43,490 nt of DNA, from positions 1 to 43,490 of IMG/VR virus record IMGVR_UViG_2778261673_000008; one strand, given 5' to 3'. Both the position numbers and the translations under genes were made by a program. The notes below the pieces were generated by a model. The model had not been told where the DNA came from and ran no database searches. It saw only the letters and a list, made by a program, of their open reading frames with translations. Source of the stretch: a virus (taxonomy: Duplodnaviria; Heunggongvirae; Uroviricota; Caudoviricetes). Of this stretch, positions 7,722-39,255 are shown in pieces. Each line of letters opens with the position of its first letter. Within the stretch, counting starts at the first letter, position 1.

Positions 7722-8503
7722 ACAACGTTTTTACCGCGATACAAAACCGTGACGGAGAAGCCCTTTCTCGCATGTCAGGTTATGAGCATCAGTACACCAA
7801 CAATGACAACGTGGTGAACATGTCAGCAGAGAGGCTTGTTGATGCCCTTTTCAAACAGCTGAAACAACTGTTTCCGGCGGCAGTGGTAACCAACCTGAAG
7901 ACGCCAGAGCAGGAAGTTGCTGCAAAACAGCAGTGGATTGCTGCGTTTGCCGAAGGGGGGATCCGAACCCGTGAACAGGTTTCTGCTGGTATGCGCCACG
8001 CCCGAGCCAGTGAATCTCCGTTCTGGCCGTCGCCTGGGCAATTCATCAAGTGGTGTAAAGACAGCAAGATGGTTCTTGGCGTCACCATTGACGATGTGAT
8101 GGCAGAGTTTCACCGGTACAGCAAGGAAAAAAGTTTATATCCTGGTGGTCCCGAAAGATTCCCGTGGCGGCATCCGGTTATGTACTGGGTCGTATGTGAT
8201 ACCCGCCGTGCAATGTATCAGCGCCAGCTTAGCGAGATTGAGGTTGAGAAACACGCGCGCAGGCTGCTCGATGATTGGGCGAAAAAGGTGGCTTCCGGAC
8301 AGCAGATACCCGATCCGGTGATCAGCATACAGGCAAAGCCAGAACCCATGAGTACGCCTCCGGACACAGGGAGAGATGTTTACCATCCACCAGGGCGAAG
8401 TTTCGGGTGCATGCCTAACGCCGCCACCCTTGGGGGAATAACACCGGCGCAGTGGCTGATGGAGGAATACAGGCGAGGAAAGGCAGCAGGATTTATCAAG
8501 TAA
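7718..8503 (+). CDS. Replication protein P-like (helicase loader)
   Basis: QQWIAAFAEGGIRTREQVSAGMRHARASESPFWPSPGQFIKWC is close to lambda P (RRQWVLAFRENGITTMEQVNAGMRVARRQNRPFLPSPGQFVAWC, from memory); GTG start with GGGAGGA RBS overlapping the O-like stop. Confidence 0.8.
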   Translation: MNNVFTAIQNRDGEALSRMSGYEHQYTNNDNVVNMSAERLVDALFKQLKQLFPAAVVTNLKTPEQEVAAKQQWIAAFAEGGIRTREQVSAGMRHARASESPFWPSPGQFIKWCKDSKMVLGVTIDDVMAEFHRYSKEKSLYPGGPERFPWRHPVMYWVVCDTRRAMYQRQLSEIEVEKHARRLLDDWAKKVASGQQIPDPVISIQAKPEPMSTPPDTGRDVYHPPGRSFGCMPNAATLGGITPAQWLMEEYRRGKAAGFIK

Positions 8504-8539
8504 TACCAGCGCGATAGCGCATTTTTTTACGCCTATATG

Positions 8540-8618
8540 ATTACCTTGTAGGTAATAAAATGTTCTAATTTCTATTGATTTCATGTCTTATGTGGTTTTT
8601 AATTACCTAAGGGGTAAA
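8540..8618. promoter_or_regulatory. Two operator palindromes upstream of the 8621 operon
   Basis: ATTACC TTGTA GGTAAT (8540-8556) and ATTACC TAAGG GGTAAA (8602-8618, 3 nt before the ATG), with TATGTGGTT between them. Confidence 0.5.
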
Positions 8619-8620
8619 TC

Positions 8621-8965
8621 ATGAGAAAACAGATACAGGCTCTTGGTCGACTCAAAACAGGCCAGATGAACAAAACAGAATCTGCGTATTGCCAGCACCT
8701 TGAGCTGCGTAAACGTGCAGGAGAAATCGTCTGGTATCGATTTGAGGGTATCAAGTTGCGGTTAGCTGACAACACGTTCTATACGCCCGATTTTGCTGTG
8801 ATGCTCGCCACCGGCGAGATGGAACTGCACGAAGTGAAAGGTTTCTGGACCGACGACGCCAGGGTGAAAACCAAAGTCGCCGCAGATCAGTATCCGTTCC
8901 GAATCATCGGGGTAACGGTTAAACCAAAGAAAGCAGGTGGTGGCTGGAACATCGAAGAGTTCTGA
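8621..8965 (+). CDS. Small phage protein, possibly DUF1064-like nuclease fold
   Basis: 114 aa; YTPDF...ELHEVKG...D pattern; assignment by recollection only. Confidence 0.4.
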   Translation: MRKQIQALGRLKTGQMNKTESAYCQHLELRKRAGEIVWYRFEGIKLRLADNTFYTPDFAVMLATGEMELHEVKGFWTDDARVKTKVAADQYPFRIIGVTVKPKKAGGGWNIEEF

Positions 8966-9005
8966 ATCGACGATCTTTTTAGTTATCAATGTTATCAATA
9001 AGTTA

Positions 9006-9014
9006 TGTGGATAA
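9006..9014 (-). promoter_or_regulatory. Consensus DnaA box (TTATCCACA on minus strand) next to a tandem GTTATCAAT repeat
   Basis: TGTGGATAA at 9006-9014; GTTATCAAT x2 at 8982-8999. Confidence 0.35.
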
Positions 9015-9026
9015 GCGAGGGTAAAG

Positions 9027-9509
9027 ATGAAACCGAGTTATGAAGAACTTGAAGAGCAACTGAACAGATCTCGACGTCTCTGTGATGCTGCTCTGGCTAA
9101 TGAGCGGGCATGGGAAACAGCCATGATGCAGGCATGCGGTGAAGACGGTCCGAAGTCAGTAGCTGATAAGTTTGCGGAACTTGAAGCCAGATGCGCGGCG
9201 CTGGCCGCTGAGAATGCGGGGCTGAAACACGCAATGGCCGTAACTCTTGAGCATGTGTCGGTCACGGATGCAGGGCAGGCTGGTGTTGCTGCAATGATTA
9301 TCAACGATGCCCTACACCATAGCGAAACCCCAGCCACCGACGCTTTCCTGGCTGAAGTGCGGGCGCAGGCGTTTAATGACCTTTGCTCGGTGTTCGTTAA
9401 GGACGCGACGGTTGCCGGGCTGGACGATGGCGACATCGTTACGGTGAAAGAAGCGACGGACGCCCTGCTGCATTGTGCGGAACAGATTCGCAAAGGAGGC
9501 AGTCAGTGA
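9027..9509 (+). CDS. Hypothetical protein (160 aa)
   Basis: ORF with GAGGG RBS; coiled-coil-like N-terminus; no recognised domain. Confidence 0.4.
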   Translation: MKPSYEELEEQLNRSRRLCDAALANERAWETAMMQACGEDGPKSVADKFAELEARCAALAAENAGLKHAMAVTLEHVSVTDAGQAGVAAMIINDALHHSETPATDAFLAEVRAQAFNDLCSVFVKDATVAGLDDGDIVTVKEATDALLHCAEQIRKGGSQ

Positions 9510-9940
9510 GCAAAATTAATTACCAGGCACTGCGTGAGGCGGCAGAGAAAGCCGGTGAAGATAAGTGGCAGGCTAAAAAAATAAATGGTGATTTTTTCGT
9601 TATTCGTCACGGTAGTTATACAAGACAGCATGGCTACACATCGTATCAACCCATTGCGGAGATTGATTGTAAGCCAGTCCGGGATTTTGTTGCCAAGGCT
9701 AATCCGGCTATCGTGCTGGAATTACTGGATGAACTGGAAGCAGCAAAAAAGCGCATTGCAGAACTGGAAAGCAACGAAGTCCTTGAAGTCGGAAATCAGT
9801 TTCTTGTTGTTCGCCATCCTGGGAAAACTCCTGTCATTAAGCACTGCACTGGTGACCTGGAAGAGTTTCTGCGGAAGTTAATCGAACAAGACCCGTTAGT
9901 AACTATCGACATCATTACGCATCAAAGGAGAGTGATATGA
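9506..9940 (+). CDS. Hypothetical protein (about 145 aa)
   Basis: GTG start after AGGAGG, overlapping upstream stop; translation MSKINYQALREAAEKA... Confidence 0.4.
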   Translation: MSKINYQALREAAEKAGEDKWQAKKINGDFFVIRHGSYTRQHGYTSYQPIAEIDCKPVRDFVAKANPAIVLELLDELEAAKKRIAELESNEVLEVGNQFLVVRHPGKTPVIKHCTGDLEEFLRKLIEQDPLVTIDIITHQRRVI

Positions 9941-10506
9941 CCACTATAACCGATAAGAAACAGTATCCAGGCGAGCAATATCTTAATGAGCTGATCACCA
10001 ACATAGAGTTTGCGGCAAGGACACCAGTTGAAGTCGTGAGAGCAATGGCAGCAGAGCTACAGAAGCGGCGCGAAGCTGATAGTGCCGAACCTGCAAGTAA
10101 TCATGAAGAGTTGCCGCTTGATTATCTCCAAGGTCAAAAAGATGGTCTTGAATGGGCTGCGCAGCTTGCAGAAGCAAATCACCCACAAACTGGCGACTGG
10201 ATTTACGATGACCCGCTGGAGCTGGCTAAAGCTATCAGAAAAGGTCCTGACATGCCCGAATTCGATGGACCAACTCCGGTAACTCCGGATGGTTGGATAA
10301 GCTGTAGTGAGCGAATGCCGGAAGACACCAAAATGTTACTGGCATTTAGTCAAGGTCAAATAGTGGCAGCATATTGGAACTGGGTAATGAGTCCAATTGA
10401 TTACAAAAAATATAGAGCTTTCACATATTTATCAGGAAATATCTTGGATGACGTAACCCACTGGATGCCGCTGCCAGAACCGCCGCAGGAGGTTAACCGT
10501 GGCTAA
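9937..10506 (+). CDS. DUF551-like protein
   Basis: C-terminal WISCSERMPED...THWMPLPEPP is typical of DUF551 phage proteins. Confidence 0.55.
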   Translation: MTTITDKKQYPGEQYLNELITNIEFAARTPVEVVRAMAAELQKRREADSAEPASNHEELPLDYLQGQKDGLEWAAQLAEANHPQTGDWIYDDPLELAKAIRKGPDMPEFDGPTPVTPDGWISCSERMPEDTKMLLAFSQGQIVAAYWNWVMSPIDYKKYRAFTYLSGNILDDVTHWMPLPEPPQEVNRG

Positions 10507-10780
10507 CCTGCAACTTGCCGTCAAAGGTGAATACTTCGATGCCATGATTCGCAGAGAGAAAACGGAAGAGTATCGCCTGTGTAATGACTATTGGAATAAG
10601 CGCCTCGTTAACCGTAAGTATGACCGCCTGATTATCACAAAGGGATATCCGAAGCGTGACGATTCCAGCCGCAGAATTGACGTTCCGTATGGCGGATATG
10701 AAATCAAGACAATCACACATCCGCACTTCGGCGATAAACCGGTAAAGGTTTACGCGATAAAGGTAAATATTGATGGCTAA
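10499..10780 (+). CDS. ASCH/PUA-like small protein
   Basis: 93 aa; N-terminal GEYFDAMIRREKTEEYR resembles the ASCH fold pattern; AGGAGG RBS, GTG start. Confidence 0.4.
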   Translation: MANLQLAVKGEYFDAMIRREKTEEYRLCNDYWNKRLVNRKYDRLIITKGYPKRDDSSRRIDVPYGGYEIKTITHPHFGDKPVKVYAIKVNIDG

Positions 10781-11111
10781 ATCAGCAGCAGAGCGCAAAG
10801 CCGCTCAGAGAGCCAGACAAGCTGCATCCGGTGTACGTAAGCTGGAGATTGTGCTTGATGCTCAGGAAATTGAAATGCTGGAGCGTAACTGTGCCACGCG
10901 TCGCCCCGGGCGTGCGCCTTACGAATTTGGTGAGTATATAGCGTTACTGATCCGCCAGGATGATGCACGCGTGCGCGGGCGTATAAAATCGATCAGCAGA
11001 AAACGTTGCGGTAAGTGCGGCGAGAGAGTTCCAGTTAATTCATGCCCGTGTAATGGTGACTCGCAATGCTGGGTGACTAAAGGCTGGCATGAAACGAAAT
11101 TAATAGTGTGA
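10770..11111 (+). CDS. Hypothetical protein with Cys-rich C-terminus (possible zinc ribbon)
   Basis: 113 aa; C-terminal CGKCGERVPVNSCPCNGDSQC; immediately upstream of the packaging genes; stop codon lies inside the palindrome GTGACATGTCACG. Confidence 0.4.
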   Translation: MMAKSAAERKAAQRARQAASGVRKLEIVLDAQEIEMLERNCATRRPGRAPYEFGEYIALLIRQDDARVRGRIKSISRKRCGKCGERVPVNSCPCNGDSQCWVTKGWHETKLIV

Positions 11112-11160
11112 CATGTCACGAGTAGATTATGCATGATGAATTTGATGTGTTTTGAATACT

Positions 11161-11186
11161 GCCGCCAACTATGGCGGCTTTATTTT
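11161..11186 (+). terminator. Rho-independent terminator
   Basis: GCCGCC-AACTAT-GGCGGC followed by TTTATTTT. Confidence 0.7.
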
Positions 11187-11196
11187 GCATGGTACT

Positions 11197-11231
11197 ATTA
11201 CCACAACGGTAACTATTACCACGGTGGTTAT
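11197..11231. promoter_or_regulatory. Two operator palindromes immediately upstream of the small terminase gene
   Basis: ATTACC ACAAC GGTAAC (11197-11213) and ATTACC ACGGT GGTTAT (11215-11231, reaching the start codon). Confidence 0.45.
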
Positions 11232-11826
11232 GATGCCTGCTGAACCTAAAACCTATAAACGCAAATCAACGCAATTTAAGCCACTAACAGCAATGCAGGA
11301 GGCTTATTGCCAGTCATACATCAAAACGCCTGAAAACCAGACTCAGGCAGCGATTAACGCAGGATTCTCCCCAAATACAGCGGCAGTTAAAGCCAGTGTC
11401 ATGATGCGCGATGAACGCATTCAAAAACGGATTGCCGAGTTGATGGAGGAGCGCAACAAACGAATGCGCGTCAGTGCTGATTACGTTCTCATGCGCCTGG
11501 TGGAGATCGACCAGATGGACGTGATCGACATCCTCAACGACGATGGGAGCCTTAAACCAATCCGTGAGTGGCCGAAAATCTGGCGCACTACGCTTAGTGG
11601 CTTTGATCTGTCATCGACCATCATGAACATGAACGAGGATTCGATAGAGACAATCCTCAAAAAAATTAAATGGCCTGACAAGGTGAAGAACCTCGAACTG
11701 ATTGGTAAGCACGTCGACGTCAACGCGTTCAAAGAACGCATGGATGTTAATGTGAATGTGACAATTGCTGATCGCATAGCAGCAGCCAGGAAGAGACTGA
11801 AAGAACGTCAGGATGGCAATCAGTGA
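11230..11826 (+). CDS. Terminase small subunit
   Basis: Start taken at MMPAEPKTYKRKS; AYCQSYIKTPENQTQAAINAGFSPNTAAVKASVMMRDERIQKRI resembles the Terminase_2 small-subunit family; stop overlaps large terminase start. Confidence 0.75.
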   Translation: MMPAEPKTYKRKSTQFKPLTAMQEAYCQSYIKTPENQTQAAINAGFSPNTAAVKASVMMRDERIQKRIAELMEERNKRMRVSADYVLMRLVEIDQMDVIDILNDDGSLKPIREWPKIWRTTLSGFDLSSTIMNMNEDSIETILKKIKWPDKVKNLELIGKHVDVNAFKERMDVNVNVTIADRIAAARKRLKERQDGNQ

Positions 11827-13298
11827 CAGATGCAGCGTTATCTCCTGAAGAGCAGTTGATCGAGGATATTGCAGGGTTCACTCACGATCCGCTTGGCTAT
11901 GCCCTCTATGCGTTCCCGTGGGGGGAAGAGGGGACTGAACTGGCACATGCTTCCGGCCCACGTCAGTGGCAGGCCGATGCGTTCCGAGAGATACGTGATC
12001 ACCTGCAGAATCCAGAGACGCGTTATCAGCCGCTTATGCTGGCACGTGCTTCTGGTCACGGTATTGGTAAATCCGCATTCATCTCAATGCTAATCAACTG
12101 GGGCATGTCCACTTGCGAGGATTGTAAGGTCGTGGTGACCGCCAACACCGACAACCAGCTACGAACGAAGACCTGGCCGGAAATTATCAAGTGGTCGAAC
12201 CTTGCTATCACGAAAGACTGGTTTACCTGTACCGCTACCGCGATGTACAGCAATGATCCTGGGCACGACAAGCGGTGGCGAGCTGACGCAATCCCCTGGT
12301 CTGAGCACAACACTGAGGCATTCGCCGGACTACACAACGAGCGCAAACGCATCATCGTGGTATTCGATGAAGCGTCGAACATTGCGGATCTGGTGTGGGA
12401 AGTTGCTGAGGGTGCGCTTACGGACGAAGACACTGAGATTATCTGGGTGGCGTTCGGAAACCCTACACGTAATACCGGGCGTTTTCGCGAATGTTTCCGC
12501 AAATACAAACACCGCTGGAAAACTGCGCAGATTGACAGCCGGACGGTGGAAGGTACTAACAAACAGCAGTTGCAGAAATGGGTTGATGACTACGGGGAAG
12601 ACAGCGACTTCGTTAAAATCCGTGTGCGCGGCATATTCCCTGATGCATCTGAATTGCAGTTTATCCCTACCGGTCTTACTGATGAGGCAATGAAACGGGT
12701 GGTAACCGCTGCGCAGGTGGCACATGCTCCGGTGATAATCGGTGTTGACCCGGCATATTCAGGCGTTGATGACGCGGTGATATACCTGCGGCAGGGGTTG
12801 CATAGTAAGGTGCTATGGACTGGCAACAAGACCACTGACGATCTGATTATGGCGAAGCGTATCGCTGACTTTGAAGACCAGTATCAGGCTGACGCGGTGT
12901 TCATCGACTTCGGTTACGGAACCGGTCTGAAGTCAATCGGTGACGGCTGGGGGCGCACATGGCAACTTGTTCCGTTCGGTGGTGCGTCAACTGACCCTCA
13001 GATGCTCAACAAGCGCGGGGAGATGTTCAACTCATGCAAGACATGGCTGAGGTTGGGCGGGATGCTGGATGACCAGGAAACAGCGGACGATCTGTCGGCG
13101 GCAGAGTACAAAGTTCGCGTGGACGGTAAAATCGTTATCGAACCGAAGGAAGATATCAAAGAACGACTTGGGCGTTCGCCTGGTAAAGGCGATGCGCTAC
13201 TGCTGACGTTTGCTTTCCCGGTGTCAAAGCGCCTGCGACTTCCCGGGCAGCAGAACCAGCAAGGCAAGGCGCTTACCGAGTACGATCCATATGCTTAG
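11823..13298 (+). CDS. Terminase large subunit
   Basis: 491 aa; Walker A-like ASGHGIGKS and Walker B-like IVVFDEA, then nuclease region; GTG start overlapping terS stop. Confidence 0.85.
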   Translation: MTDAALSPEEQLIEDIAGFTHDPLGYALYAFPWGEEGTELAHASGPRQWQADAFREIRDHLQNPETRYQPLMLARASGHGIGKSAFISMLINWGMSTCEDCKVVVTANTDNQLRTKTWPEIIKWSNLAITKDWFTCTATAMYSNDPGHDKRWRADAIPWSEHNTEAFAGLHNERKRIIVVFDEASNIADLVWEVAEGALTDEDTEIIWVAFGNPTRNTGRFRECFRKYKHRWKTAQIDSRTVEGTNKQQLQKWVDDYGEDSDFVKIRVRGIFPDASELQFIPTGLTDEAMKRVVTAAQVAHAPVIIGVDPAYSGVDDAVIYLRQGLHSKVLWTGNKTTDDLIMAKRIADFEDQYQADAVFIDFGYGTGLKSIGDGWGRTWQLVPFGGASTDPQMLNKRGEMFNSCKTWLRLGGMLDDQETADDLSAAEYKVRVDGKIVIEPKEDIKERLGRSPGKGDALLLTFAFPVSKRLRLPGQQNQQGKALTEYDPYA

Positions 13299-14113
13299 TC
13301 TTTATTTTTATCCTCGAAACCTGATAATCCAGATAGAACACCAAAGTTATTAAAAACGTTTGGCTTACCAGATTTTAATCCGGATAAGTTGTGTTGCTCC
13401 AAAAAGTTGCTAATTGTTTGGCCGTTGCCAAGTGCAAGGCTTTTTATTTGAGATTTTTCAGGGTATTTGAGTTTGTATTCGTCGAAATCATTTTGGAGGG
13501 TCTTATATGCCTCATTCATTCTTCCAAGAGTTTCCGATATCTCTTTTAATGAATGATTTAGAGCTGCTAACTGAGCACTGGCGGATCTCAATTCGTCATC
13601 TTTAGCTTTCAACTCGGCAGTCAATTCCCCCATACTATTCTTTGATCGAATAATCTCTTCTTTCATCTCTTGGATGTCTTTTTCCGCGCCAGTCTTAACT
13701 TTGTCGTATGTAACATCTTTTTTAGCCAATAACCTCTGCAGTCTTGTTTCACGCTGGATTTTTCTTGCCTTCAGGTGATTTTCGATTGAGTCATTATTAT
13801 CAAGAGGCTTTGCTTGCCATACGTTAATGATATTGTTTACCCATGGTAATAGGCAGCAGATAGCAATTACAGATAAGCATGGATAAAACATAACAGTTTT
13901 CCATGTGCTGTTATCTGAGATATATGAAATTTTATCTATTATGTTTGATTTGCTAAAAAATAGATAAAGAATTGATTTCCAGTTGAAGGCGCACCAGGAC
14001 ATAACAAAAGCACCAAGCACAGGGTTTTTGGCTCGATTCACGGCAGTATTGGCAGTAGATAAAAACAGCTCTTTGAACGATTCAAACATGCTAATTACCT
14101 TGAAGTTTTTCAT
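13295..14113 (-). CDS. AT-rich moron: membrane protein with long coiled-coil domain
   Basis: Start taken at MKNFKV; two hydrophobic segments (about residues 32-53 and 73-96), then a 130-aa K/E-rich coiled coil; opposite strand to flanking late genes; operator palindrome 4 nt upstream of the ATG. Confidence 0.5.
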   Translation of the reverse strand: MKNFKVISMFESFKELFLSTANTAVNRAKNPVLGAFVMSWCAFNWKSILYLFFSKSNIIDKISYISDNSTWKTVMFYPCLSVIAICCLLPWVNNIINVWQAKPLDNNDSIENHLKARKIQRETRLQRLLAKKDVTYDKVKTGAEKDIQEMKEEIIRSKNSMGELTAELKAKDDELRSASAQLAALNHSLKEISETLGRMNEAYKTLQNDFDEYKLKYPEKSQIKSLALGNGQTISNFLEQHNLSGLKSGKPNVFNNFGVLSGLSGFEDKNKD

Positions 14114-14116
14114 GAT

Positions 14117-14133
14117 TATACCTTTAAGGTAAT
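14117..14133. promoter_or_regulatory. Operator palindrome TATACC-N5-GGTAAT overlapping the moron promoter
   Basis: Minus-strand reading ATTACCTTAAAGGTATAATCATG: palindrome includes a TATAAT hexamer directly before the ATG. Confidence 0.45.
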
Positions 14134-14148
14134 TTGCGGTCATCAAGC

Positions 14149-14172
14149 AAAAAAATGCCCGGCGAACCGGGC
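14149..14172 (-). terminator. Rho-independent terminator between tRNA and moron
   Basis: GCCCGG-CGAA-CCGGGC hairpin with T-run on the minus strand. Confidence 0.6.
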
Positions 14173-14249
14173 GAACTGGAAGCAATGAGTTATGCCTTCC
14201 GTGGCTGTACTGGTTTACAGCATGAAGTCATCGCAATGGCGTCCTGCTG

Positions 14250-14335: not shown

Positions 14336-14412
14336 TGGCGTGGCATGCAGGATTCGAACCTGCGACCAACCGCTTAGAAGGCGGTTGCTCTGTCCAACTG
14401 AGCTAATGCCAC
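14336..14412 (-). tRNA. tRNA-Arg (anticodon UCU), phage-encoded
   Basis: Hand-folded cloverleaf: acceptor GTGGCAT/ATGCCAC, D-arm GCTC/GAGC, anticodon stem ACCGC/GCGGT with loop CTTCTAA, T-arm GCAGG-TTCGAAT-CCTGC, encoded CCA. Confidence 0.85.
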
Positions 14413-19231: not shown

Positions 19232-19567
19232 ATGTCAGGTGAGAAACCAAGATACCGCGTTCTGCGCCTCTCTCATATCCATAACACTCTGTGGCCGGAG
19301 GGGGCAGAAATCGAATACGAAGGTGAGCCTGGTAGCGCACTGGAACCTGTTAACGATGCAGCCAGACAGGCAAAAGCAAAAGTTGCAGGAAAGGTGTCAA
19401 TGGCAACAACCAGCACCAAAATCATCAACGATGTGTCAGATGATGGTGAACTGGATAAGCTCCGTGAAGAGTACGAATTGCTCTTTAACGAGAAGCCACA
19501 CCATAACGCCAAAGCCGAAACGCTCCGCGAGAAGATCGCAGATAAGCGTAAAGAACTGGGCGTGTAA
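19232..19567 (+). CDS. Hypothetical protein
   Basis: Start taken at MSGEKPRY (GGTGAT RBS); followed by a terminator. Confidence 0.4.
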   Translation: MSGEKPRYRVLRLSHIHNTLWPEGAEIEYEGEPGSALEPVNDAARQAKAKVAGKVSMATTSTKIINDVSDDGELDKLREEYELLFNEKPHHNAKAETLREKIADKRKELGV

Positions 19568-31013: not shown

Positions 31014-31310
31014 ATGCAAGCTATAGGATTCATTGTTTATATCGTCGTTGGTCTTTTTCAGTTGGCAGCAATTATGGCTGGGCTTGAATCATGGTGGGGA
31101 TTGCACTGGATAATTGCAGCCCCCATTGCTTTCATCGTGAGCTATATTCCATTTGTTGGAGCGATTGTTGGTATGGTTGGCGCTGTGGATGTATGGCGGT
31201 GGGAGTGGTGGCAGGCTGGCCTTCTATTCTTTGGTGGGATAATCTTTGCTATTGTCTGCGGTGGAATGTCATCATTTTTCGAATGGCTATCATTCAGAAA
31301 AGGGACGTGA
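31014..31310 (+). CDS. Small integral membrane protein (98 aa, about 3 TM helices)
   Basis: Hydrophobic throughout with W-rich loops; stop codon lies inside the palindrome CGTGACATGTCACG. Confidence 0.5.
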   Translation: MQAIGFIVYIVVGLFQLAAIMAGLESWWGLHWIIAAPIAFIVSYIPFVGAIVGMVGAVDVWRWEWWQAGLLFFGGIIFAIVCGGMSSFFEWLSFRKGT

Positions 31311-31341
31311 CATGTCACGGGCCGCTTTCGCGCCCTTGTTT

Positions 31342-31503
31342 TTAACGAATGCCACCGCCGCCCGGGCGGGAATCCGCAGAACGCCCACCGCAGCGGGAGC
31401 CGTCAGCGGCAGTATCGCTGTCGTGCTGACAACGGCCGGCAAAGGCCTGAGTTGAAGCTACCAGAGACAACAAAACGAACAGTGCAGCAAATGCTTTTTT
31501 CAT
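31342..31503 (-). CDS. Possible small secreted peptide (53 aa)
   Basis: MKKAFAALFVLLSLVASTQAFA signal-peptide-like N-terminus; upstream TTGACG-N16-TATAGA promoter-like sequence; a competing plus-strand ORF exists. Confidence 0.25.
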   Translation of the reverse strand: MKKAFAALFVLLSLVASTQAFAGRCQHDSDTAADGSRCGGRSADSRPGGGGIR

Positions 31504-31573: not shown

Positions 31574-31599
31574 ACAAAAAAAGCCCGCAGCGCGGGCTT
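31574..31599 (-). terminator. Rho-independent terminator of the 31598-32137 gene
   Basis: AAGCCCGC-AGC-GCGGGCTT hairpin with 7-nt T-run on the minus strand, overlapping the stop codon. Confidence 0.75.
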
Positions 31600-32137
31600 A
31601 CCAAAACTTGTACCACGGTGATTTATCCTTCAATGGACAATCCTTCCATCGTGTGGCCAACCATTCATATTCTTTAAAATATGTGTTTATGTTTTCTTTT
31701 TCTCTAATGGCTTGTATAAGAGGTAGCGCAATCTGATAGTTATTTACAACGGAGCTGTAAAATACTTCCTTAATCATGGTCTCATCATAAGTTTTCCGCT
31801 TCACGCTCACAGCCATGCGTTCGTAGAAACCTAGACAGTAAATTATTTCTCTCTTCTCTGTCTTTTCTTCATCCGTAAGATCAGCCTGCCCATTGCTTGG
31901 ATACATATAAGAGCGGAATGATTTGTTCGATTCGTGAATGCGGCGCATAGTAGATAGGCCTTTCTTATAATCTACATCAAACCTGCTTTCACCAAGGAAT
32001 ACTGAAGTGTGTACTTTTCTCGCTGTATTTACATTATAAATAATAGTAGCGATAGCTATGAACAAGCCAAGCGAAACCGCGACTGCACTTACTATTTGAG
32101 CCACGGCCATGGCAAATTGCATTTCTTCACTTAACAC
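31598..32137 (-). CDS. AT-rich membrane-anchored protein of unknown function
   Basis: Single N-terminal TM helix then a 150-aa domain rich in Y/K/E; very low GC relative to neighbours; own terminator. Start GTG 32137 or ATG 32122. Confidence 0.5.
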   Translation of the reverse strand: MLSEEMQFAMAVAQIVSAVAVSLGLFIAIATIIYNVNTARKVHTSVFLGESRFDVDYKKGLSTMRRIHESNKSFRSYMYPSNGQADLTDEEKTEKREIIYCLGFYERMAVSVKRKTYDETMIKEVFYSSVVNNYQIALPLIQAIREKENINTYFKEYEWLATRWKDCPLKDKSPWYKFW

Positions 32138-32264
32138 AAACTGTCTCCAGACATGAAAACGGGGCCTAATGGCCCCGTCATTAAACTATCCGAATGTTAA
32201 ACGCCTTCGTACTCGTCAAATTTTCTCATGTGGGCTCCTCCTGTATCGGTGCCTAATCGCTATG

Positions 32265-32281
32265 GATCACCCGTGAGGTAA
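32265..32281. promoter_or_regulatory. Operator-like palindrome ATCACC-N5-GGTAAT
   Basis: ATCACC CGTGA GGTAAT between the Bro gene 3' end and the 32137 gene start. Confidence 0.35.
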
Positions 32282-32346
32282 TAGTAAGCTATTCACCTGC
32301 AATCTGTACAGAATTATTTAAAGGCACATCCCTGTGCCGCCGTCCG

Positions 32347-33057
32347 TCAGAAGAACCCTGCTTTGTCGTTGATATACTCCGCGTGGGTCTGGATATCACG
32401 CAGGCATTTGCTCACACCGACAATGTAGCAGAACATGGTGGTCAGCTCCGCCGCCGCGCCCGATACATCATGCCCGTCGTCCTGCAACTGATTCAGCAGA
32501 TTCATCAGCAATGAGTTCTCCGTCAGGCCGAGAACACCAGACGGCGAATGAATCAGACTGCGGTAGCCGGGCTTCAGTGGGGCACTGTAGGTTTTGTTCT
32601 CTATCTTCATTGCCTGCATCACTGCTGACGCCGTGGCGTTGGCTACCTGGTCGGCAACCATCTTTATGCGTTCTTCCTGCGGGAACGAGTTTTTAATGTA
32701 GCTTCCTGTTCGACGGATCTGAGGAAGTACCTCACCTGTAACCCATTTACGAAAGCGGTAGGGGATAGTGCCTAGTGTCACTGCGTCGCGGCAGCGGAGG
32801 ATCAGTGTGTAGAGGCCTGACTCGGAGATGATGTTGATCTCTTTTACTCGGCTGTCAAAAATTGCACGATGTTCATGCCCTATGTTGAACATAGACCTTT
32901 CATCATCATCCAGTTTTTCAAGTGCTTGGGTGACGTTTTGGATACGCAGCGCACTACAAACGTCTTGGGCTACAAACCATGGTTGGCCATCGATAATGAT
33001 GGAACGGATAGGGTTAACAGATTCAAATTTGAAGATGGCAGTTTGAGCATTAGCCAT
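32347..33057 (-). CDS. Bro-N domain antirepressor-like protein
   Basis: Start taken at MANAQTAIFKFE (GGAG RBS); N-terminal IFKFESVNPIRSIIIDGQPWFVAQDVCSAL is a Bro-N signature; C-terminal domain is paralogous to ORF 34206-34463. Confidence 0.7.
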   Translation of the reverse strand: MANAQTAIFKFESVNPIRSIIIDGQPWFVAQDVCSALRIQNVTQALEKLDDDERSMFNIGHEHRAIFDSRVKEINIISESGLYTLILRCRDAVTLGTIPYRFRKWVTGEVLPQIRRTGSYIKNSFPQEERIKMVADQVANATASAVMQAMKIENKTYSAPLKPGYRSLIHSPSGVLGLTENSLLMNLLNQLQDDGHDVSGAAAELTTMFCYIVGVSKCLRDIQTHAEYINDKAGFF

Positions 33058-33325
33058 GGTGGTTATCTCCACTTAGTGATTTTAATCACCACCGCAACGC
33101 CAATTACTGGTGGTGAACTGGACAAGGTTGGCGTACCGGCCTAAGTGGTACCGGTGTCCTTTCGGACCCCTGCCCAGCCCACCATAATTCGGATATAGCT
33201 GTGCTTAACGCATAAAAAAACCACGTCTGGCGTGGTATGCGCCACTTAGTAACCCGGGACGCCAATCCCGGCACTGGATTTTGCCAGTGCCCGATTACTA
33301 TGGCACAAGAGGAGTGCGATGTAAA

Positions 33326-34658: not shown

Positions 34659-37070
34659 ATGACGGTCTCAACCGAAGTCGACCATAACGACTACACAGGG
34701 AACGGCGTTACCACATCTTTCCCGTACACGTTCCGCATCTTCAAGAAGTCAGATCTCACCGTCCAGGTCGCTGACCTTAACGAAAATATTACGGTGCTGA
34801 CTCTGGATACCGATTACTCCGTTACCGGGGCGGGTACCTATTCTGGCGGGAATGTCGTGCTGATGTCACCGCTGGCCAACGGATGGCAGATTTCTATCTC
34901 GCGCGACCTCCCAGTTACCCAAGAGACTGACCTCCGTAACCAGGGGAAGTTCTTCGCAGAGGTCCATGAGGATGCGTTCGACAAGCTGACCATGCTTATC
35001 CAGCAGTGTTTCAGCTTTCTACGCCTGGCGCTGCGCAAGCCGTCGTTCATCGCGAACTATTATGACGCACTCAACAACCGCATTCGTAACCTTCGTGACC
35101 CGTCACAGGCGCAGGACGCAGCCACGAAGAATTATGTTGATGGGCAGATCGTTGACAACACCAATGCCTGGAAAGCTGGTGATGCCATTCTTGATCAGAA
35201 GATTGACAGTAATTTTGCGAGAACTCTACGGGTTCCAGAAAGCACTGTTGACCAACTAAGCCCGGTATCTGTTCGGAAAAACTCGTTGTTAGGATGGGAT
35301 AGCAACGGAAAGCCAATACCTGTTTTTTCGATGACAGATACAGCAGATCTCGCAATAAAGTTAGCATCTCATGAAGATGGTCTTGGTATGTCTTTGCTGG
35401 GCATGCCAGGGTCTGGATCTTTAAATCAACTTATTGGTAAGTGGACTTGTCCTGAGGCATGGGGCGTTATTACTGATTCCCAGCCAGACGCTCATGCTAA
35501 TTCTAAAAAAATGTTTAATATGTTTGAGTGGTTACGATCTTTAGGTGGCGGTGTAGCATATTTCACACCAGGTAAAACCTATTGGATTGATTTTATTCAG
35601 TTCGTACCCAGCAATGTTGTAATTATAGGATATGGGGCTACGGTAAAACAGATAAACCCATTGTCAATGTATGGTCGTGGTGGTTTCGTTTTTGGGAGTG
35701 GCAGAGAATGGAACTATAAAAAAGCAAAAGCGGCATACAATTCCGGTAATTACCCGTCTTCCGTTGCTGATTCTACGATGGCAGAGTTACCACTGAAATC
35801 TTACCTGAGAGATAATCAGTCTTATGTTCAGTGTGAGAAATGTAAAGTTTATGGCTTGCGCATGTCTGCAGTGTTTACTGATTCCAGCTATTGGGGAGGC
35901 TATGCATTTAATTGTGTTAATGCACAGCATATAAGATTTTTCGATGTGGTTGGTGATGGTTGGACTCAATTGTTTAACTTTGGTAACGATAGTTCTTCCT
36001 CTTCTCCATCTTGTTATGATGTAATTGCAAAAGGTGCTACCGTTGAAAAGGCGGATCTTGTTCGCACTTATTATGCATTTGGTTTTATTGCAAACTCAAC
36101 AGATTGCTGGATTGAAGATTGTGATCTACTTAAGCCTATGACTGCCGGAACTATTAATGGTTCAGGAGCTGCTACAAACTTTGTAGAAAACTGTGGGTTT
36201 AAAGATTTACGAGCTGCAAAATTAGGTCGTACAGTATCTTCGGAGATGGTTCTATTAAATAATGCAAAAGGCTGTCTTGTTGAGAATATAGATGTTGGTG
36301 ACTGCATTAATGGTGTAGCCACCTACTATACTGATGATTCATATAATGATGCTAACATGCCGAATATTATAAGAAACATTTCTGCATCAGCTGATAATGT
36401 TGTCGCTCTTCGTGCAAAATACTCTGTTATTGATGCATTTCATGGTAAGGGGGCATACATAAATGAGTTGTATTTCGCAAATAATAACGCAAGCGGAAAC
36501 AAAATAAATAAAAACCCTAAATCTATAGGCTTTGGTGGCACAAACCTGCAATCATGGTTTTTAACCAATAATACTGTTCTTGGTTGGTTCAGAAGATATT
36601 TTTATTTAAGACCATCAGAAATAATTCTGAACGACAAAGCAGACACATTATCATGGACATTTAACAAATTAGTATCAACAAAAAACGGTGTTGATCTTTA
36701 CTTCATGTGGAGGGTTCCAGATGATATAAAAGCTATTGATGATATAAGAGCTTTTATAAGATTTAACATTTCACCTGATCAGAATGCAGCAGCAGCAGGA
36801 TCTACTGTTGAAGCAAGTTTAATTCAGATGATATCGTTTGACGGAGATATAAATACAGATCCTTACACGGCGTTTTCTAATTCAAAAGTTGCTACATCTG
36901 GAGTTGAAAACACTACAATAGTAACTCAAATGGGGTCAACTGCCCCTGGCTTTGTAAAAATGGCAGATGAAACACATGGACTTGCATATAGTTGGTATGT
37001 GTTATTTAAAATGACACATAACGTAAATAACAATTATATGAAAGAAATCAGAATAGCGGGGTATAATTAA
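34659..37070 (+). CDS. Tailspike / tail fibre protein
   Basis: 803 aa; N-terminal segment of phage-typical GC content, then a long AT-rich C-terminal part with beta-rich N/G/S/T/Y composition. Confidence 0.7.
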   Translation: MTVSTEVDHNDYTGNGVTTSFPYTFRIFKKSDLTVQVADLNENITVLTLDTDYSVTGAGTYSGGNVVLMSPLANGWQISISRDLPVTQETDLRNQGKFFAEVHEDAFDKLTMLIQQCFSFLRLALRKPSFIANYYDALNNRIRNLRDPSQAQDAATKNYVDGQIVDNTNAWKAGDAILDQKIDSNFARTLRVPESTVDQLSPVSVRKNSLLGWDSNGKPIPVFSMTDTADLAIKLASHEDGLGMSLLGMPGSGSLNQLIGKWTCPEAWGVITDSQPDAHANSKKMFNMFEWLRSLGGGVAYFTPGKTYWIDFIQFVPSNVVIIGYGATVKQINPLSMYGRGGFVFGSGREWNYKKAKAAYNSGNYPSSVADSTMAELPLKSYLRDNQSYVQCEKCKVYGLRMSAVFTDSSYWGGYAFNCVNAQHIRFFDVVGDGWTQLFNFGNDSSSSSPSCYDVIAKGATVEKADLVRTYYAFGFIANSTDCWIEDCDLLKPMTAGTINGSGAATNFVENCGFKDLRAAKLGRTVSSEMVLLNNAKGCLVENIDVGDCINGVATYYTDDSYNDANMPNIIRNISASADNVVALRAKYSVIDAFHGKGAYINELYFANNNASGNKINKNPKSIGFGGTNLQSWFLTNNTVLGWFRRYFYLRPSEIILNDKADTLSWTFNKLVSTKNGVDLYFMWRVPDDIKAIDDIRAFIRFNISPDQNAAAAGSTVEASLIQMISFDGDINTDPYTAFSNSKVATSGVENTTIVTQMGSTAPGFVKMADETHGLAYSWYVLFKMTHNVNNNYMKEIRIAGYN

Positions 37071-38776: not shown

Positions 38777-39255
38777 TCACGGCATTCGTGAAAGCATACT
38801 GGAAACAGTTGCTTATCGTGTCGATGCTTGCTGCTCTGGTGGCCGGCGGCGTTATAGCCTGGAATATTCACGGTGACAGACAGTACGACGCCGGGTATGC
38901 GCAGGCGAAGGCTGACCGCAAAGCAGAAGATGAGAAAGCCCGTCAACATGATGAACAGGAGAAAGCAACCAATGAACGTGAGGCGCAGCAGAGGATCGAC
39001 CAGGCGCGCAATGATGCTCTTGATGCTGCCGCTCGCGCTGGCCGGCTGCAGCAGCAGCTCGTTGCCATCCGTGAGCAGCTCAGGCAGTATAACGCCACTG
39101 TCGGCGCTGGGTCGTCAGCCGCAGACACCGGAGTTTTGCTTGCCGACGTGCTCAGCAAATCTCTCGAGAGAAACAGACAACTGGCAGAGTATGCTGACCG
39201 GGCAGCCGAAGCCGGAAGAGTCTGCGAAAAACAGTACGACACCCTGACCAGATAG
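38773..39255 (+). CDS. i-spanin (Rz-like)
   Basis: ATG overlaps the endolysin stop; N-terminal TM helix then charged coiled coil; contains an embedded lipoprotein ORF in another frame. Confidence 0.7.
   Translation: MITAFVKAYWKQLLIVSMLAALVAGGVIAWNIHGDRQYDAGYAQAKADRKAEDEKARQHDEQEKATNEREAQQRIDQARNDALDAAARAGRLQQQLVAIREQLRQYNATVGAGSSAADTGVLLADVLSKSLERNRQLAEYADRAAEAGRVCEKQYDTLTR
39011..39249 (+). CDS. o-spanin (Rz1-like lipoprotein) embedded in the Rz gene
   Basis: +1-frame ORF MMLLMLPLALAGCSSSS...: lipobox LAGC, Pro/Ser-rich mature part, ends 6 nt before the Rz stop. Confidence 0.65.

Follow-up and report, generated by a model that had tools for sequence, protein, structure and literature searches.

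The window, which is the whole 43,490-nucleotide stretch analysed here, is an E. coli prophage of the epsilon15/phiV10 type (Uetakevirus); around the palindromes described below, it is 97% identical to PAS61, ZX5, TL-2011b and phiV10, and 80% identical to epsilon15 (eps15). The 13-mer GTGACATGTCACG occurs exactly twice in the window, at 11108-11120 and 31307-31319, both on the plus strand. These two copies, designated site A and site C, and the features that surround them are as follows.

10773-11111, plus strand: gene for a 112-aa protein with a predicted ribbon-helix-helix (RHH) fold and a Cys4 zinc motif, of the phiV10 gp55, eps15 gp49 and N15 gp46 family (phrog_536)
11108-11119, no strand assigned: site A, a 12-bp perfect palindrome, GTGACATGTCAC; the common 13-mer reaches 11120
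11161-11186, plus strand: intrinsic terminator between site A and terS, GCCGCCAACTATGGCGGC plus TTTATTTT, at a distance of 41 nt from site A
11230-11826: terS (Terminase_2)
31014-31310, plus strand: gene for a 98-aa membrane protein (phrog_3075), the last gene of the virion operon, with its stop codon in site C
31306-31319, no strand assigned: site C, a 14-bp perfect palindrome, CGTGACATGTCACG, with the 12-bp core GTGACATGTCAC at 31307-31318
31319-31343, plus strand: terminator-like hairpin, (G)GGCCGC-TTTC-GCGCCC followed by TTGTTTTT
35095-35106, no strand assigned: a third match to the half-sites, GTGACCCGTCAC, inside the tailspike gene

The original prediction had described a duplicated 13-bp perfect palindrome and placed its copies one base off. 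The duplication of the 13-mer is exact, but a perfect palindrome of odd length is impossible; the palindromic unit is the 12-bp core, extended to 14 bp at the second copy. Its account of the setting was correct: each copy overlaps the TGA of the preceding gene, which is 11109-11111 in site A (the stop of ORF 10770/10773-11111) and 31308-31310 in site C (the stop of ORF 31014-31310), and the two copies flank the virion module, which runs from terS (11230) to the end of the final virion-operon gene (31310). The duplication was also rightly judged to be improbable. For a given 13-mer, the expectation is 0.0013 recurrences in the window, both strands counted; perfect 12-bp palindromes number 11 in the window, against 10.6 expected, and the probability that any two of these 11 match exactly is about 0.013. 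Chance does not account for the duplication of the palindrome.

When the element is written as two inverted half-sites, GTGAC-N2-GTCAC, the window contains three matches against 0.04 expected, and no match for GTGAC-Nk-GTCAC with k = 0, 1 or 3-7. The third match is at 35095-35106, where it covers tailspike codons R-D-P-S at about residue 145. For the receptor-binding protein of phiV10 the first 205 aa are taken as the anchor domain (PMC10408124); the match falls within the anchor domain, away from the junction of the anchor and receptor domains, and synonymous positions vary in homologous tailspikes, breaking it. For these two reasons it is treated as a chance occurrence and is probably fortuitous.

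Both sites adjoin signals for transcription termination. The hairpin at 11161-11186 dominates the centroid fold, and a homologous terminator is annotated in eps15. The hairpin at 31319-31343 begins at the last base of site C; its stem has one bulge here, which is the reason why a simple terminator scan missed it in the window, and is perfect in most relatives, and the site C terminator is annotated in both phiV10 and eps15. In Uetakeviruses, the sites are all found at the 3' ends of transcription units, with a stop codon 5' and an intrinsic terminator 3'. At junction A the order is stop codon, site, 22-41 nt, terminator, repeats resembling repressor operators, and terS; at junction C it is stop codon, site, 1-3 nt (occasionally 11-17), and terminator; at junction B, read along the minus strand, a cargo-gene stop codon is followed by 4 nt, the site, 0-4 nt, and a bidirectional terminator.

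The half-site sequence GTGACA was also considered as the -35 element of a promoter. At site A it gives GTGACA-18-CATGAT in the window and GTGACA-17-TAAATT in eps15, SPN1S and Tyrion, a σ70-like match of 9/12 positions that is followed by the terminator; the number of such matches equals that expected from shuffled sequence. The layout of promoter then terminator is absent at site C and in the other lineages. A promoter is possible at site A only, and not above the shuffle expectation.

The palindrome is conserved at the corresponding junctions of related phages. Epsilon15, SPN1S and Tyrion each have three perfect copies, one at each of junctions A, B, and C. Junction A is where the last early gene (eps15 gp49 or phiV10 gp55) has its stop codon; junction B is directly 3' of the TerL terminator, convergent with a reverse-oriented cargo gene; and junction C is on or beside the stop codon of the last virion-operon gene, directly 5' of its terminator. 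Copies B and C of phiV10 are perfect, and copy A is a one-mismatch version, GTGACATGTTAC, that is divided by the ends of the GenBank record, which opens inside the palindrome. BUCT711 has A, C, and two copies within virion genes (23066 and 26462). The window lacks site B because the reverse ORF 13295-14185 directly abuts TerL. The original prediction would have lost its ground had the motif been missing from relatives at these positions; every Uetakevirus examined carries the motif at the corresponding junctions. In GenBank, the eps15 and phiV10 entries mark terminators and repressor, IHF, and RNase III sites, and leave the palindromes unannotated.

Larger sets of loci, retrieved independently of the motif, give the same result. 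Among 80 IMG/VR loci recovered through the 98-aa membrane protein upstream of site C, the 12-mer is intact in 77 and has one mismatch in 2; in the remaining locus the palindrome and the terminator are both lost. Around the conserved 12-mer of these loci both flanks, the terminator sequence, and the downstream genes vary. For site A, 79 loci were recovered through the gp55-like protein alone; the 12-mer is intact in 74 and has a single mismatch in 4, and site B is also seen in 51 of the 79. Sites with the N2 spacing outnumber those with any other spacing by 93 to 0 in one set of Uetakevirus loci (479 kb) and by 125 to 2 in another (469 kb). Invariance of the 12-mer while adjacent bases, terminators, and neighbouring genes vary points to purifying selection on the 12-mer itself.

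The borders of variable regions in Uetakeviruses coincide with sites A, B, and C. Beyond site B, at least five unrelated minus-strand cargo genes are found behind the same arrangement of TerL, terminator, and palindrome; at site A, two unrelated alternative downstream modules begin right after ...CACGA. Site C follows three different membrane-protein genes in eps15, phiV10, SPN1S, Tyrion, and BUCT711, and the terminators and islands downstream of it differ as well; the island beyond site C in the window carries DUF4760 and Bro-N antirepressor genes.

The likely reader of the palindrome is encoded next to site A. The 112-aa protein belongs to no Pfam family; phrog_536 is labelled "transcriptional regulator", and an exhaustive HMMER search returned only 154 cluster representatives. 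PADLOC does not identify the protein as a known defence component. An AlphaFold2 model built on a 59-sequence alignment (pLDDT 93; the single-sequence version has pLDDT 46) begins with a basic helix at the N-terminus (residues 5-19), continues through an extended segment and two helices (30-42 and 52-74), and ends in a Cys-rich loop followed by a C-terminal helix. On this model, whose structural matches include Arc, the protein is confidently predicted to be an RHH DNA binder with a Cys4 zinc motif; its N-terminus (AERKAAQRARQAA) is arginine-rich and predicted to be helical. Homologues detected by tblastn occur in Pectobacterium myovirus ZF40 (gp22), the linear plasmid-prophages N15 and phiKO2, P2-like Yersinia phages, Aeromonas phages, and many Vibrio phages.

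Phages with a homologue of this gene carry a motif with a common grammar, YGTGAC-NN-GTCACR, in which inverted half-sites of 5-6 bp have a fixed spacing of two bases and a free central dinucleotide. The motif is present about three times per genome in the homologue-bearing lineages examined, with the exception of Aeromonas phage, which carries its own variant. GTGAC-Nk-GTCAC (k = 0-7) was counted in whole genomes carrying a homologue, for which about 0.04 sites are expected per genome and spacing. The N2 count is 3 in the window, eps15, ZF40, N15, Vibrio K233, Tyrion, and SPN1S, 4 in BUCT711, and 2 in phiV10 (plus one imperfect site); the P2-like Yersinia phage has 1, with a one-mismatch copy 33 bp away. 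In these counted genomes the other spacings from 0 to 7 are represented by a single N3 site, in Vibrio K233. In 913 kb around genes like N15 gp46 and those of K233, N2 sites number 110 against 2 for all other spacings. Lambda and P22 have neither a homologue nor an N2 site; the two GTGAC-N1-GTCAC sites of lambda are coding sequence for V-T-V-T.

Fixed half-sites, the spacing of 2, and the free centre hold across about 10 lineages, and the central dinucleotide is lineage-specific (AT, TG, AC/GC, or CG, with TG/CA in N15). The loci within each lineage are phylogenetically related, and the independent support therefore comes from some 8-10 lineages, not from hundreds of loci. In the Aeromonas phage, the canonical motif is replaced by three exact copies of GTGACCGGACAC, one of them directly before the homologue; none of these sites is symmetric, and they all point the same way relative to the downstream ribosome-binding site. 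A further distant locus carries a pair of half-degenerate sites, separated by 31 bp. In the wider searches, many IMG/VR matches to the 15-mer encode the C-V-T-C-H-G of DnaJ-like zinc fingers and are irrelevant; arrays of CGTGACA repeats occur in high-GC contigs (L030, L060, L062, L091, and L119).

Outside the Uetakeviruses the sites are typically intercistronic, taking in the stop codon of one gene and lying 2-12 nt before the Shine-Dalgarno sequence of the next, as at N15 gene 47, in several IMG/VR contexts, and at the three Aeromonas sites; in Vibrio K233 and locus L341, a copy precedes the start of terS by 11-19 nt. Intragenic sites are found in ZF40 (5125 and 7622, in gp08 and a cII-like gene), in the virion genes of BUCT711, and in repA of all N15-like loci.

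Three associations connect the motif with the RHH/zinc protein: co-occurrence, adjacency, and co-variation. In annotation tables, the RHH gene is the only one visibly common to Uetakeviruses, ZF40, N15, the P2-like phages, and the Vibrio phages. In Uetakeviruses, in ZF40, and at every N15-like locus, the stop codon of the homologue is overlapped by the motif or separated from it by no more than 9 nt; the motif is also at the stop codon of divergent IMG/VR homologues (about 60-70% identity) whose downstream DNA is unrelated, and in locus L342 it is 3 nt upstream of the ATG of the homologue. The nearest site is farther away, 0.2-3.4 kb from the homologue gene, in Vibrio K233 and the Yersinia phage. 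The Aeromonas homologue is only about 30% identical, and its motif variant differs too. By this guilt by association, we infer that motif and protein are a pair; an inverted-repeat site is compatible with a two-fold symmetric dimer, and an RHH dimer, as modelled, on two inverted half-sites with an unconstrained centre would be the simplest match of protein to site.

The palindrome is real as a cis element and strongly conserved, it has a plausible cognate protein, and the association of the two is solid. What the pair does is less secure: at roughly even odds (a probability of about 0.5), the palindromes are a conserved operator of the RHH/zinc protein that controls the flow of transcription at operon boundaries. 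The cognate binder would most likely be a dimer of the product of ORF 10773-11111, judging from the sequence associations; we infer that the site is bound as DNA rather than RNA, and likewise the sign of the effect on transcription. ORF 10773-11111, the last gene of the early-right operon, would be expressed after induction, and its product would occupy sites at the 3' ends of transcription units: site A where the early operon ends, directly ahead of the terminator and terS; site C where the virion operon ends, directly ahead of its terminator; and, in relatives, site B between TerL and the cargo island. Most characterised RHH proteins are repressors, and the bound protein may act as a repressor-like roadblock or insulator that sets the amount of transcription across these junctions. 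Such an insulator would also block antisense transcription that enters the virion operon from convergent cargo genes; the adjacent terminators work in one direction only, so that protein bound here would be an additional barrier in the antisense direction.

A bound protein cannot activate a downstream promoter at the intercistronic sites or at those of Aeromonas, where the 13-15 nt from site to start leave no room for one; this leaves an effect of the roadblock type. Several observations stand against the operator reading, among them the distance between site and gene in Vibrio K233 and the Yersinia phage. A roadblock has no obvious benefit for sense transcription when it stands just 5' of a terminator or covers the stop codon of its own gene; the intragenic sites suit an architectural role no less than a regulatory one; and the asymmetry and shared orientation of the Aeromonas sites hint at a directional mechanism, possibly at the RNA level. 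As to the original prediction, a regulator-binding site is supported in kind, by association (conserved junctions and co-occurrence with the RHH gene); that the site defines the late operon is too narrow, in that relatives have a third copy after TerL and other copies are intragenic or precede unrelated genes.

An operator of this kind has counterparts among small RHH proteins of phages and plasmids. Arc and Mnt (of P22 immI) and CopG and omega likewise act on short symmetric DNA sites, and the part of the genome at site C resembles the P22 immI module in that it also holds an antirepressor gene. In contrast to the phage motif, whose sites are dispersed at 3' ends or between cistrons, the Arc/Mnt operators overlap promoters and adjoin each other; the phage protein has an additional zinc motif, and the sequence of its site is unrelated.

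Site A alone is also reminiscent of lambda Q and qut, in that the last early gene encodes a regulator and is followed by a presumed site, a terminator, and the late packaging genes. The 112-aa protein has no match to the Q family in Pfam, NCBIfam, or the PDB; unlike qut, sites B and C and the intercistronic sites have no promoter; and the transcript from the putative site A promoter would be only about 27-45 nt. A Q/qut-like reading is possible for site A and unsupported elsewhere. ZF40 and N15 encode separate Q-like antiterminators as well, so the RHH family is not simply "the" late regulator.

If the pairing is true, it defines a recognition code and a regulon for the phrog_536 family, which has been annotated only as "hypothetical" or "transcriptional regulator". 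Members occur in podo-, sipho-, and myoviruses, and also in plasmid-prophages, whose hosts are Enterobacterales, Vibrio, and Aeromonas. The pairing would also give epsilon15-like phages, which have no known control of late genes, a testable control element at the early/late junction and at the borders of islands that carry antirepressor, defence, and serotype-conversion cargo. The element is unusual in two respects: it stands at operon ends and the borders of cargo islands, and it resembles matS minus one base. A literature search did not find GTGACATGTCAC or the N15 and Vibrio variants in a relevant context. The 12-mer offers a practical landmark of module boundaries for the engineering of phiV10-type reporter phages.

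The resemblance to matS bears on an unlikely alternative, in which the sites are architectural elements like those of MatP/matS or a plasmid centromere, dispersed sites that are bridged to fold, tether, or insulate phage DNA or to engage MatP/SMC complexes of the host. matS is the 13-bp sequence GTGAC[AG]N[TC]GTCAC (PMC3603311), and MatP reads it via its RHH domain (PMC12756933). The half-sites of the two elements are identical (GTGAC ... GTCAC, often GTGACA/TGTCAC); both are present in few, dispersed copies, which in the phages are sometimes intragenic; and an RHH dimer, the reader of matS, is also the presumed reader of the phage motif. matS/MatP and the phage motif are found in the same host clades. 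The centres differ, however: matS has an N3 centre, R-N-Y, whereas the spacing of the phage motif is strictly one base shorter, N2, giving 12 bp, and the window has three N2 sites and no N3 site that could fit the 13-bp consensus. The proteins differ as well, in that MatP has a four-helix bundle and a C-terminal coiled coil, both missing from the 112-aa protein, which consists of the basic N-terminal helix, RHH core, and Cys4 zinc motif and has only generic RHH structural similarity to MatP; homology to MatP, considered as a candidate, was unsupported by BLASTP, hhalign, and a PDB profile search. In addition, the phage sites lie at operon or cistron junctions of a 40-kb phage, whereas matS is spread across an 800-kb chromosomal domain. 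Half-sites of matS with one base less between them are a natural experiment in the spacing specificity of RHH proteins, and a near-matS motif bears on the reported avoidance of matS by prophages.

An effect at the RNA level is a rather improbable alternative to the operator reading. Here the same protein, through its Arg-rich N-terminal helix and/or zinc motif, would bind the transcribed motif and tune termination or translation initiation, for which Mu Com and lambda N/boxB are the models. The placement of many sites agrees with it: the motif is 0-3 nt 5' of the terminator hairpin at Uetakevirus sites B (minus strand) and C (plus strand) and in other contexts, and it is 2-12 nt 5' of a Shine-Dalgarno sequence at N15 gene 47, at L010, L011, L056, and L068, at K233, L341, and L342, and at the three same-orientation Aeromonas sites. 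The basic N-terminal helix of the protein is in keeping with RNA binding too, whereas the RHH is a fold that binds double-stranded DNA, and short intergenic spacers alone would put any intercistronic site beside a Shine-Dalgarno sequence. As RNA the palindrome is a poor structure: its hairpin has 4-5 bp (-2.7/-3.6 kcal/mol; z -1.5/-1.9) and is gone when folded in context. The stem is invariant, without covariation, and the would-be loop varies, the reverse of what RNA operators typically show; in the Aeromonas variant one stem pair is broken and no compensating change restores it. Moreover, intragenic sites exist, and that of N15 repA is in the opposite sense.

Recombination or module exchange, in which the 12-14 bp serve chiefly as a junction sequence for swapping cargo genes and modules, is improbable to much the same degree as the RNA-level effect. 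Of this role, which the original prediction had listed, one part is borne out: mosaic breakpoints abut the edge of the palindrome at junctions A, B, and C, and Uetakevirus-type phages encode recombinases of the RecE/RecT type. No dedicated recombinase, however, tracks the motif across lineages, 12-14 bp is marginal homology, and any conserved site between exchangeable modules would coincide with junctions. Recombination also leaves unexplained the grammar of half-sites and spacing, the lineage variants, the linkage to the RHH gene, and the repA sites of N15.

It is improbable, more so than either of the preceding readings, that a host factor or another phage protein binds the site and the RHH gene is a mere neighbour. 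The pairing of RHH protein and site is, as stated, one of association, and the site resembles both matS and the SlmA site of the host. Lambda and P22, however, grow in the same hosts with zero copies, the motif changes with the lineage of the RHH protein (Aeromonas), and no other gene is visibly shared by the motif-bearing phage groups. The SlmA site, GTGAGTACTCAC, is bound by a TetR-family protein; it is also a 12-bp palindrome with the same outer GTGA/TCAC, but it has G/C at positions 5 and 8, where the phage motif has an invariant C/G. CRP recognizes TGTGA-N6-TCACA and FNR recognizes TTGAT-N4-ATCAA; the gap between GTGA and TCAC is 4 bp here against 8 bp in the CRP consensus, and the spacing fits neither regulator.

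A MatP-like system of the phage family's own is as improbable as a host factor. According to this reading, a minimal RHH/zinc protein reads a "phage matS" at 2-4 sites per genome, and the phage chromosome is thereby bridged, insulated, or marked, instead of its genes being regulated in the classical way. One base less between the half-sites presumably makes such sites invisible to host MatP; possible effects are the delimiting of the virion module and cargo islands, or the displacement of SMC/MukBEF-type complexes of the host.

A packaging (pac) recognition site, another role in the original prediction, is very improbable: site A is about 110 bp upstream of terS, copies stand just before terS in K233 and L341, and the phiV10 record opens inside the palindrome, but the motif has about three copies per genome, it accompanies unrelated packaging systems (Terminase_2, Terminase_4, lambda-type, as in N15 with its cos and Nu1/A-type terminase, and P2-type), and the N15 sites are far from cos, with no copy near it. 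A literature search returned nothing on the virion ends of epsilon15/phiV10-type phages. The start of the phiV10 record inside the palindrome has a simpler origin, as the record merely begins at the base after the last stop codon.

Two short elements lie between site A, the palindrome copy on the stop codon of the gp55-like ribbon-helix-helix/zinc gene, and the small-terminase gene terS:

11138-11160, hypervariable G/T run between site A and the terminator, containing GATGTGTTTTGAA
11191-11222, pair of direct repeats (GGTACTATTACCAC, GGTAACTATTACCAC) past the terminator and ahead of terS

The epsilon15 counterpart of the direct repeats (positions 12-27 of its record) is annotated as a prophage-repressor binding site. 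Similar operators are annotated ahead of the portal unit and of the tailspike, an arrangement suggesting that the late units are directly under repressor control. A comparison of relatives found the G/T run to be hypervariable although they are otherwise near-identical; this short run changes in both length and sequence, with the variants gatgtgtttt, gatgggtttt, gatggatttt, gatggtttt, gatggggttt, and gacgggtttt.

The phiV10 GenBank record (L001) is linearised within site A (…AGTGTGA/CATGTTACG…), directly after the last stop codon, so that the element cannot be seen in this entry, whose "terminator" feature at 39104..39104 is a placeholder of a single base. In some relatives (BUCT711 and the IMG/VR loci L020, L021, L097, and L099) an extra gene separates the gp55 homologue and palindrome from terS:

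34-440 of BUCT711 (L178), extra inserted gene

Judged only by eye, the inserted gene of these loci looked like a putative UmuD/HumD-type gene; it is preceded by a strong TTGACT-17-TATACT promoter that overlaps the LexA-box-like sequence TACTGTTTAAATATACAGTA.

Further features lie at or past the TerL stop, where the tRNA-Arg gene is inside the variable island that separates TerL from the portal gene, and in the island 3' of site C, the palindrome copy at the end of the virion operon:

13295-14185, minus strand, 296-aa ORF overlapping the TerL stop
14336-14412, minus strand, tRNA-Arg, anticodon TCT (ARAGORN)
31598-32137, minus strand, DUF4760 protein
32347-33072, minus strand, Bro-N antirepressor-like protein

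The 296-aa ORF fills the position held in relatives by a terminator and palindrome (site B); it has no Pfam family, and its PADLOC matches are only weak and coiled-coil/SMC-like (DndD, LmuB, and JetC; E 3e-5 to 9e-3). The DUF4760 and Bro-N genes (31598-33072) are convergent with the virion operon.

Beyond these relatives, an N15-type motif, CGTGACTGGTCACG, lies inside the 5' part of repA (N15, L122, position 33237) and is kept there in every N15-like contig (L126-L174); a further copy occurs in the gene 33/32 intergenic region of the anti-immunity locus. The P2-like Yersinia phage vB_YenM_42.18 (L123, region 8073-11720) encodes a homologue of the gp55-like protein, gp15, upstream of the Ppl-type defence gene gp17 (PHP plus ABC/SMC ATPase; PADLOC Ppl, E 4e-28), and has a double site at 11675 and 11708, just past gp17, in the P2 cargo hotspot. 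Vibrio phage K233 (L124) has, in addition to three GTGAC-N2-GTCAC sites, a 13-bp site, GTGACACCGTCAC, at 19491-19503 that matches the true matS consensus of E. coli MatP and overlaps a stop codon. In the high-GC viral contigs L030, L060, L062, L091, and L119 the palindrome copy is surrounded by dense CGTGACA/GTGACA repeat arrays, which look like iteron or centromere-type arrays.
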